This document shows, one piece after another, positions 35,647 to 38,507 of a DNA stretch of 64,000 nt. Position 1 is the stretch's first letter, and the number at the start of each line of letters is the position of its first letter. The DNA comes from an uncultured Sphingomonas sp. (lineage in GTDB: Bacteria; Pseudomonadota; Alphaproteobacteria; Sphingomonadales; Sphingomonadaceae): assembly GCA_913775975.1 (NCBI GenBank), contig CAJYLQ010000048.1, positions 1,292 to 65,291 on the forward strand. The letters run 5' to 3'. A program made the translations under genes and the position numbers. The notes below the pieces were generated by a model. The model worked only from the letters and a program-made list of their open reading frames with translations. It had not been told where the DNA came from and did not search any database.

Positions 35647-36753
35647 ATGACCCAGTCCGGCCTGCTCCCCGAAGGTTTCCACGACCGCCTGCCGCCCGCC
35701 GCGGATATCGCCGCCGCGATCGAGGCGCGGGTGCTGGAGGCGGCGCGGGGGCATGGGTATGAGCGGGTCGATCCGCCGCTTGCCGAATATGCCGACGAGC
35801 TCGCCGCCCGGCTGAAGGCGGGCGGGCTGACCGATGCGGTGCGCTTCGTCGATCCGGTCGGGCAGGCGACGCTGGCGATCCGGCCGGACATGACCGCACA
35901 GGTCGCGCGGATCGCGGCGGTGCGGATGGGGCACCATCCCCGGCCCGTGCGCCTGTCCTATGCCGGCTCGATCCTGCGGCTGCGCGCCTCGCAACTCGCG
36001 CCCGCGCGCGAGCGGCGGCAGGTGGGGGCGGAACTGATCGGCCTCGATTCGGTCGATGCCGCCGCCGAGATCGTCGGCGTCGCGGTGGAAGGTCTGGCGG
36101 CGGCGGGGATCGCGGATGCCTCGATCGATTTCACGCTGCCGGATCTGGTCGATGCGCTCTCCGCCGGGCCGCTGCCGGTCGCGGCCGACGCGATTGCGGC
36201 GCTTCGCGAGCGACTGGACGCCAAGGACGCCGGCGGCGTCGCGGCGATCGCGCCCGCCTATCTGCCGCTGGTCGAGGCGGCGGGGCCGTTCGCACCCGCA
36301 ATCGCGCGGTTGCGCGCGTTCGACACGGGCGGCGTCCTGACGCGGCGGCTGGACGCGCTGGAGGCGATCGCGGCGACGCTGCCCGATACGGTCGCGCTGA
36401 CGCTGGACCCGACCGAGCGGCACGGCTTCGAATATCAGTCGTGGCTGGGTTTCTCGCTGTTCGCGGCGGGCGCGGCGCGCGAGCTGGGGCGCGGCGGCAC
36501 GTACCAGATCGTCCATCCCGATGGCCGCGAGGAGCCGGCGACGGGCTTCTCCCTCTATGCCGATGCGCTGTCGGCATCGGGCCATGCGGGCGAGCGGCGG
36601 CGGCTGTTCCTGCCGCACGGCACGTCGCCAGTGGAGGGCGCCCGACTACGCGCCGAGGGCTGGGTCACGGTGCGCGCGCTGGAGCCGTCCGACACGCCCG
36701 CCGCGCAGCTGGCGACGCATATCTGGCGAGACGGCGCGGCGCACCCGCTCTAG
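35647..36753 (+). CDS. hisZ: ATP phosphoribosyltransferase regulatory subunit
   Basis: LLPEGFHDRLP, RPDMTAQVAR, QVGAELIG, GGTY; hisZ-purA context. Confidence 0.92.
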   Translation: MTQSGLLPEGFHDRLPPAADIAAAIEARVLEAARGHGYERVDPPLAEYADELAARLKAGGLTDAVRFVDPVGQATLAIRPDMTAQVARIAAVRMGHHPRPVRLSYAGSILRLRASQLAPARERRQVGAELIGLDSVDAAAEIVGVAVEGLAAAGIADASIDFTLPDLVDALSAGPLPVAADAIAALRERLDAKDAGGVAAIAPAYLPLVEAAGPFAPAIARLRAFDTGGVLTRRLDALEAIAATLPDTVALTLDPTERHGFEYQSWLGFSLFAAGAARELGRGGTYQIVHPDGREEPATGFSLYADALSASGHAGERRRLFLPHGTSPVEGARLRAEGWVTVRALEPSDTPAAQLATHIWRDGAAHPL

Positions 36754-36854
36754 GAAAACCGTACCGCCGCCAAGAACGCCCGTGACATGGGTGAGAGATA
36801 GTCCCTAACACGGCCGATGGCGGCATCTCGCCGTCGATCCAATGGGAGACAGCC

Positions 36855-36947
36855 ATGTCGTTTGGTGATGTGTGCCTGTTCCTAGCGGCGCTGTTCGCGT
36901 TCGGCACTCTTCTTTTGAAGGTGGTCGAAGTGGCGCGCCACAAATAG
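36855..36947 (+). CDS. Unannotated 30-aa single-TM peptide, putative type I toxin (MSFGDVCLFLAALFAFGTLLLKVVEVARHK)
   Basis: SD GGGAGA 5 nt before ATG; hydrophobic core then basic C-terminus; 55% GC (51/93); below ORF-track cutoff. Confidence 0.75.
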   Translation: MSFGDVCLFLAALFAFGTLLLKVVEVARHK

Positions 36948-37051
36948 GCAACCGGGCGGGGGCGCGTTGCCGCGCGTCCCCCAAACGATTGAACCCCCGC
37001 CATTGCCGTGGCGGGGGTTCATCCAATGGCTCAGCCATATCGTTTGGTGCC
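36942..37051 (-). ncRNA. Putative antisense antitoxin sRNA
   Basis: Starts just downstream of a minus-strand promoter; 5' 29 nt complementary to the toxin SD/ATG region via a direct repeat; contains 13-bp hairpin 36990-37021; 3' end uncertain. Confidence 0.6.
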
Positions 37052-37055
37052 TTCT

Positions 37056-37084
37056 CATATAGCCTCATACCTTCTCACGCGCAA
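37056..37084 (-). promoter_or_regulatory. Sigma70-like promoter for antisense RNA
   Basis: TTGCGC (37084-37079) -N17- TATATG (37061-37056), preceded by GC as in the alphaproteobacterial GCTANA -10. Confidence 0.65.
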
Positions 37085-37103
37085 TCACCCCGGCTGAACG
37101 CGA

Positions 37104-37132
37104 TTGACCTCTCCGCCTCGTCCAGCTACCCG
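37104..37132 (+). promoter_or_regulatory. Probable purA promoter
   Basis: TTGACC-N17-TACCCG (GCTA). Confidence 0.5.
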
Positions 37133-37217
37133 CGCCCCCGACATTCCTGAACCGCCCGCGTGCCGAGTCCTGTCGAAGGGCGCGCGGGTCCGTAGCGGCA
37201 GGCGGGGAATTGCATCC

Positions 37218-38507
<1,290 letters not shown>

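Follow-up and report, generated by a model that had tools for sequence, protein, structure and literature searches.

Between a hisZ-like gene and purA, the window analysed here (a stretch of 64,000 nucleotides from an uncultured Sphingomonas sp.) encodes a 30-residue peptide predicted to lie in the membrane, followed by a co-varying repeat of its start region and by twin hairpins, and we consider it likely that these parts together form a type I toxin-antitoxin module, with the peptide as its predicted toxin. The first-pass annotation had put forward the idea of a type I toxin, and this idea is stronger than that annotation knew, because it had missed the co-varying antisense element just downstream. 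Most likely the predicted module works like par/Fst without being a member of that family. We are further inclined, if less firmly, to see in it an undescribed Sphingomonadaceae type I family in which par-like control was reached independently and the shared terminator was replaced by a twin-loop address, that is, a 6-nt code carried by the docking hairpin of the mRNA and by the antitoxin hairpin and re-coded in step at least 12 times. If confirmed, this would be a widespread alphaproteobacterial type I family that lies below annotation cut-offs in about one third of the Sphingomonas genomes searched.

The peptide gene and its family

The first-pass annotation had called a 30-aa membrane peptide, and the ORF with the amino-acid sequence that it gave was confirmed at 36855–36947 on the + strand, together with the GGGAGA Shine–Dalgarno (SD) sequence (36844–36849, +) that it had placed 5 nt before the ATG; the SD position, −13 to −8, is purine-rich across the 111 homologous loci that we compared. 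The gene is flanked, on the same strand, by a hisZ-like gene (35647–36753; PF13393, E 1.5e-74), a name that is our reading of its family and of its position before purA, and by purA itself, which encodes adenylosuccinate synthetase (37218–38507; PF00709, E 2.6e-170). The GC content of the ORF is indeed low, at 54.8% compared with 74.3% for hisZ and 70.9% for purA, and the stretch of 16 uncharged residues (V6–L21) that had been read from the sequence was also found, with a top Kyte–Doolittle value of 2.46 for a 19-residue window of the 30-aa peptide. The tail, which had been described as rich in K, R and H, does contain K, R, H and K between K22 and K30, but it also contains E25. The central FG motif to which the same annotation had pointed is not a feature of the family: at position 17, 42 of 61 members have A and 16 have G.

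A search with the single peptide as query (E ≤ 0.05) gave matches at 164 places in 148 of 401 genus genomes. We analysed 111 of these places, comprising the best 30, one reached via DNA similarity and 80 from down the ranked list, with the 14 weakest left out. In all 111 the ORF is intact and has a start codon. Its product is 29–31 aa long in 110 of them and 46 aa long in one, which was cut to 30 codons for later steps, and two starts were shifted one codon upstream. Comparison of substitution rates across homologues, which the first-pass annotation had proposed, revealed conservation at the codon level, with pN/pS of 0.32 and dN/dS of 0.22 (2524 non-independent pairs among 108 ungapped peptide genes) and codon-position conservation of 0.93 at the second and 0.66 at the third position. 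Residues C7, L10, F16, T18, L19, K22, E25 and R28 are each at least 90% conserved. AlphaFold2 modelled the peptide as a single helix spanning residues 3–29 (pLDDT 93), which, along with the hydropathy value given above, agrees with the membrane segment that had been claimed. Since C7, T18, K22 and E25 lie on one face of this modelled helix, the model suggests that helices may pack against each other through that face. We conclude from these sequence comparisons that the 30-aa ORF is a real, conserved coding gene of an uncurated family, and its product has the build expected of a type I toxin: a small hydrophobic peptide with one predicted transmembrane helix and a charged C-terminus, under coding selection.

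A longer peptide subfamily was also observed, in which the C-terminal half is kept and C7 is absent (loci L241, L243, L245–L247 and L256–L270). Frames of this subfamily often lack an ATG behind the SD-like sequence AGGAGGTG, suggesting ATA or ATT starts; it reaches up to 7 copies in genome G1116, and two copies sit between ruvA and ruvB.

On the 5′ side of the gene, folding predicts a hairpin at the 5′ end of the peptide mRNA (36819–36835, +), and a hairpin below −6 kcal/mol was found at −45 to −12 in 110 of the 111 loci. A possible mRNA promoter, GTGACA and TAACAC separated by 18 nt (36782–36811, +), is weak and poorly conserved: the full pattern occurs in 5/111 loci and a −10-like element in 30/111, and the TTG and TA peaks are weak. 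A 5′ stem-loop hides the SD sequence in par; in the window fold that sequence is paired with codons 7–9 of the peptide gene. Across 37 loci set against synonymous controls there was no excess of SD occlusion by the coding region (unpaired 0.32 versus 0.35, lower in 19 of the 37), and SD occlusion is thus unsupported over this set. A 203-nt contig from public run X1 covers 36811–37013 without differences; it starts inside the putative −10 element, and X1 may be DNA, so that nothing is concluded from this contig. The search of public runs for expression covered contigs only, the kind of each run being guessed.

The antisense copy and the twin hairpins

Approximately 180 nt downstream of the SD/AUG region of the peptide gene there is a two-block copy of that region which would be read from the opposite strand. 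This copy (37021–37049, −), the pairing domain of the predicted antisense RNA, repeats the sequence at 36837–36867 (+; direct repeats D2 and D5), and its two blocks, corresponding to 36837–36845 (block a) and 36850–36867 (block b), lie on either side of the SD core and take in the start codon. For the window the duplex predicted between mRNA and antisense RNA has 9 + 18 pairs and an energy of −45.8 kcal/mol. When the downstream regions were compared with shuffled sequences, the match of a region to the start region of its own locus scored above every one of 50 shuffles in 103 of the 111 loci. The mean repeat score was 32.6 for the own locus and 17.0 for other loci, with the own locus scoring highest in 42 of the 111 loci and among the top few in 98; likewise, the mean duplex energy was −40.3 kcal/mol for own pairs compared with −22.3 kcal/mol for foreign pairs (n = 103), and the own RNA was among the top five in 96 of the 103. 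There were 296 mismatches in the repeats, 116 of which give G-U on the antisense strand, against 36 in the reverse case.

A candidate antisense promoter lies at 37056–37084 (−), with a −35 element TTGCGC (37084–37079) and a −10 element TATATG (37061–37056) separated by 17 nt. Among the loci compared, a TTG is present on the antisense strand 38–50 nt upstream in 110/110 cases (302/2410 control windows), and a TA follows 16–18 nt after the hexamer in 103/110, compared with 5/2410 controls. This looser TA pattern was picked after seeing the sequences; with the stricter TAnnnT pattern the promoter was recovered in 9/110 loci and in 9/1634 controls. The −10 boxes of alphaproteobacteria often lack the last T. 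Promoter spacing points to an antitoxin RNA roughly 70 nt long (36982–37050, −), both ends of which are estimates, the 3′ end being uncertain, and the predicted RNA folds with a z score of −6.5. A stricter, generic scan of the window for promoters and terminators returned none of either, thus missing the antisense promoter, and the Rfam scan of the window gave a best score of 30.3 bits against a cut-off of 72.2, with ftsZ-DE and sroE far below cut-off. The Rfam scan of 14 homologous loci found nothing but an unrelated suhB match; a suhB/mmgR small RNA (RF00519, above cut-off) is located at L040:2711–2787, about 1.1 kb from the module copy there. We regard the antisense partner of the peptide gene as well supported at the sequence level, and a neighbouring antisense RNA gene complementary to the peptide mRNA is the arrangement of type I modules.

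Two hairpins sit between the stop codon of the peptide gene and the downstream repeat. Hairpin 1 (36953–36987, +) would lie in the 3′ UTR of the mRNA and has the loop TTGCCG (36967–36972); hairpin 2 (36990–37021, −; inverted repeat I2) would lie in the predicted antisense RNA and has its loop at 37003–37008, reading CGGCAA on the − strand and so complementary to the loop of hairpin 1. Conservation of both was assessed in alignment A4, for which 49 of the 111 loci were chosen for diversity and the long-linker loci L040, L045 and L052 were excluded. Compensatory changes were found in 18 of the 22 hairpin pairs, 8 of 10 in hairpin 1 and 10 of 12 in hairpin 2. Read on the + strand, hairpin 1 has 54 G-U and 3 A-C oppositions, whereas hairpin 2 has 0 G-U and 34 A-C, and on this wobble bias we place hairpin 1 in the mRNA and hairpin 2 in the antisense RNA. 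The base of hairpin 1 contains a 3 × 3 internal loop in which two G.A oppositions are almost invariant (49/49 and 48/49); we take these to be sheared pairs, and a covarying pair closes them.

The 6-nt loops of the two hairpins are identical at the DNA level in all 49 aligned loci, which comprise 13 loop types, compared with a mean of 6.1 and a maximum of 14 identities after permutation, and the stems that flank these identical loops are unrelated. Because the identical loop DNA is read on opposite strands, the RNA loops would be complementary, and a kissing contact between them is predicted. On a tree with weak support, 28 changes of loop type are counted, against a possible minimum of 12. A scripted comparison found matching loops in 105/111 loci, as against 13.5% for foreign loci; it replaced an earlier hairpin finder, with which loops matched in 64 of 96 loci and which failed on 15 and often chose the wrong second hairpin. 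Among 23 hand-picked loci (21 with titles that place them outside the genus, one plasmid and one IMG/VR contig) the loops matched in 22 and the promoter was present in all 23, and among 38 further copies, mostly divergent and less clean, the corresponding numbers were 30 and 27. YUNR is present in 60 of 111 mRNA loops and absent from that of the window. Loop–loop pairing within one strand was rejected, as a reverse-complement match occurred in only 2/111 loci. Selection for distinct loop codes in co-resident copies was likewise rejected: 14 of 15 pairs differ, which is not significant because identity by chance is only 12%. In locus L056 another set of paired hairpins, possibly the remnant of a second module, lies downstream of the module, and its loop code differs from that of the first set.

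We also considered whether the repeats are features of the DNA itself, having arisen by local duplication or marking the termini of a small mobile cassette, with no antisense RNA being made. The gap between hisZ and purA accepts various inserts and no transcript was seen in the public-run contigs, whose kind is uncertain, both of which would fit such an explanation; however, the G-U-favouring asymmetry of the − strand, the conserved promoter and the combination of matching loops with differing stems are signatures of RNA, and we judge this explanation very improbable. Against the type I reading itself stand the poor conservation of the mRNA promoter, the lack of an excess of SD occlusion and the lack of a U-tract terminator, which was found on neither strand (of the 8 nt that follow hairpin 2, at least 5 are T in 8/49 loci on the − strand and 1/49 on the + strand).

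If the type I reading is correct, the module would be expected to operate as follows. The − strand promoter would drive an RNA only about 70 nt long, whose hairpin loop would first kiss the loop of hairpin 1 in the 3′ UTR of the mRNA; the 5′ part of the antisense RNA would then pair on both sides of the SD sequence and over the start codon, excluding the ribosome. On depletion of the antisense RNA the peptide would insert into the inner membrane as one helix, where it would probably self-associate via the C7/T18/K22/E25 face and slow or kill the cell, and the module would persist between housekeeping genes as a selfish or stress-responsive element. Twin loops with natural variants could reveal how far the first kiss, apart from termination, sets the speed and specificity of antisense control, and the 13 natural loop codes might serve as parts for RNA switches or for plasmid stabilisation in biotechnology strains of Sphingomonas and Novosphingobium.

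Distribution and genomic neighbourhood

The closest named homologues of the peptide, 93% identical, are those of Sphingomonas aquatilis and Sphingomonas sp. CLY1604. Named loci were found in Sphingomonas, Novosphingobium, Stakelama and Allosphingosinicella, along with one Sphingobium protein, and the peptide is present in 20/401 family genomes (15 genera), in up to 7 copies per genome. It was not found in 126 genomes of the order outside the family, and a profile of the divergent members matched 0/400 other genomes of the class, only 2 of which belong to the family. The genome from which the window comes, which is 84% complete, contains no second copy of the module. In being patchy and multicopy, in its 17–20 neighbourhoods and in having one plasmid copy near parB, ssb and repB, the module behaves like type I systems. 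As the loci are related to each other, all locus counts given here exaggerate their independence.

The flanks of the 111 loci form 20 clusters on the upstream side and 17 on the downstream side. One downstream neighbour is common to 76 of the 111 loci and encodes a thiolase in each of the 4 members that were scanned; with 76 of 111 copies at one chromosomal site, a domesticated gene fits as well as a selfish one. This bears on a further explanation, in which the RNA control is real and the peptide has no toxicity: it would be a small membrane protein for tuning an enzyme or transporter, and the antisense RNA would hold its level low. Stable residence beside the thiolase gene in most loci would be consistent with such a role, as would the failure of the peptide to reach any curated toxin family and the conservation of polar residues along one face of the helix, through which a partner could be bound. 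However, no neighbour is fixed across the 17–20 contexts, the peptide is absent from most genus genomes searched, and a dedicated, strongly promoted and locus-specific antisense partner is typical of type I toxins as the accessible text of PMC8594479 describes them. We consider a non-toxic role unlikely, while allowing it an appreciable chance, and retain a type I toxin as the preferred reading of the peptide.

The hisZ–purA site is occupied by the module in the window and in six other genomes. Among 29 other purA loci both genes are visible in 20, none of which has the peptide between them, and the gap measures 130 nt or less in 12. The gap (36754–37217 in the window; loci L002–L029) is an insertion hot spot: it measures 30–130 nt in many relatives, and in some, among them the two with the closest purA leaders (L002 and L003), 600–1200 nt of other DNA are found in it. 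Just before the purA start, and independent of the peptide module, we noted a conserved candidate leader RNA (37154–37202, +), which is also present in L002–L022 and L034–L039 and whose core motif occurs in 28 of 36 purA loci. Its stem covaries, with compensatory changes in 6 of 11 pairs, and bears a 14-nt loop that hardly varies. From this loop CCTGTCG (37169–37175) can form a pseudoknot with CGGCAGG (37196–37202), which is 100% paired in 24/24 sequences with one compensatory change. The candidate had no Rfam match and nothing relevant was found in the literature searched; a purine-sensing riboswitch or a domesticated palindromic repeat are possible explanations.

Other copies of the module lie between ruvA and ruvB, near rplI, pheT and aroC, near a conjugation gene and near DUF2460 genes, and plasmid MBES04p2 carries an unannotated copy in the vicinity of an antirestriction gene and of parB, ssb and repB. 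The module is rare on mobile DNA: searches with a single short query gave 1 match in 72,556 plasmids and 0 matches in 50,697 phage records, and IMG/VR contained 1 contig with it. Copies L235:3007–3099 and L250 are located beside DUF2460/tail genes, in clusters that look like gene transfer agents. These two copies are relevant to the idea that the peptide serves a prophage or gene transfer agent, the latter label being our own reading of the clusters, as a holin or as an aid to lysis, and matches to PHROG holins (5 of 61 members, best E 0.015) point weakly the same way. The L235 copy, however, is on the strand opposite to its cluster, no phage record was matched, and the flanking genes scanned include no endolysin, so that no lysis cassette on phage DNA was seen at these loci; we give a holin function hardly any credence.

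Comparison with known peptide and toxin families

The first-pass annotation had likened the peptide to holin-like toxins and had proposed profile searches. The search of Pfam gave no match for the window peptide. The profile PF16935 (Hol_Tox) was matched by 3/61 members (best E 0.027) and by 4 of 29 divergent members at 13.9–16.1 bits, below the gathering cut-off of 23.3, and it found nothing at cut-off in the genome of the window; in the ESM Atlas an unnamed cluster ranked first and Hol_Tox clusters next (0.89), which we treat as a lead. The two families are alike in length, in having one hydrophobic helix and in the basic tail, and the sub-threshold matches cover the M/L-I-A-F-A-T-L stretch. 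They differ in the conserved C7 and the K22/E25/R28 pattern that mark the peptide family. Homologues A0A1I6K7U5 and A0A2T5GPJ8 are named ‘Holin-like toxin’ in UniRef, a name that we believe was assigned automatically, and hypothetical at NCBI. The resemblance to Hol_Tox is thus genuine, if weak, and Hol_Tox is the nearest named look-alike; membership was rejected, as no tested member reached 23.3 bits (best 16.1). NCBIfam, PHROGs, PADLOC and the sequences of the PDB gave nothing significant for the peptide family. Membership of Fst/Ldr, which are defined by a P/D/S/TxxxG motif and a tryptophan (PMC7472228, in the text accessible), was also rejected, with the motif in 1/61 members and the tryptophan in 0/61.

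We found no description of the module in the literature searched, most subscription papers lying outside it and T1TAdb and TADB not being queried directly. For five Sphingomonadales genomes, supplementary file 5 of Fozo 2010 (PMC2887945) records zero type I loci, and file 7 of that work lists six untested Sphingomonadales small-protein candidates, such as Swit_3117 (36 aa) and ELI_03450 (34 aa); none of 44 frames flanking the module matched the neighbours of these candidates, a comparison that covered neighbours, and the peptide family may overlap with the candidates themselves. The accessible parts of PMC8167048 and PMC12390103 add no such alphaproteobacterial system.

Among Gram-negative systems, TisB/IstR-1, ShoB/OhsC, Zor/Orz and DinQ/AgrB, as far as the sources available describe them, resemble the module in their non-overlapping antitoxin RNA, repeated pairing sequence and short helical peptide. 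They differ in that the antitoxin gene lies 5′ of the mRNA, whereas that of the module would be 3′ and convergent, and no family-profile match joins the peptide to the TisB, ShoB, Zor or DinQ families. According to the accessible text on T1TAdb (PMC8594479), 3′-side antitoxins occur in Gram-positive families only, and those of Gram-negative families are on the 5′ side or overlapped.

The closest parallels in layout were seen with par (Fst/RNA II of Enterococcus faecalis pAD1) and SprA1/SprA1AS of Staphylococcus aureus, in which toxin and antitoxin genes are convergent, as predicted here, and the antisense RNA lies on the 3′ side without overlapping the ORF (PMC7472228, PMC8167048 and PMC8594479, each in its accessible part). 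As in the predicted module, two repeat blocks pair over the SD sequence and start codon and first contact is made between loops, and each peptide, about 30 aa long, combines a single hydrophobic helix with a tail that is charged. In Firmicutes, par has convergent promoters, a shared bidirectional terminator with kissing loops, and the repeats DRa and DRb over the initiation site (PMC7472228, as accessible), and a direct repeat pair over the SD sequence and start codon, with opposite reading directions, is present in the module too. The hosts of par are Gram-positive, whereas the host here is an alphaproteobacterial Gram-negative, and in the literature searched, as far as it was accessible, the 3′-side convergent layout is otherwise described only for Gram-positive bacteria. 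Furthermore, in par one shared terminator provides the kissing loops, whereas the module would employ two strand-specific hairpins with duplicated loop DNA and no U-tract.
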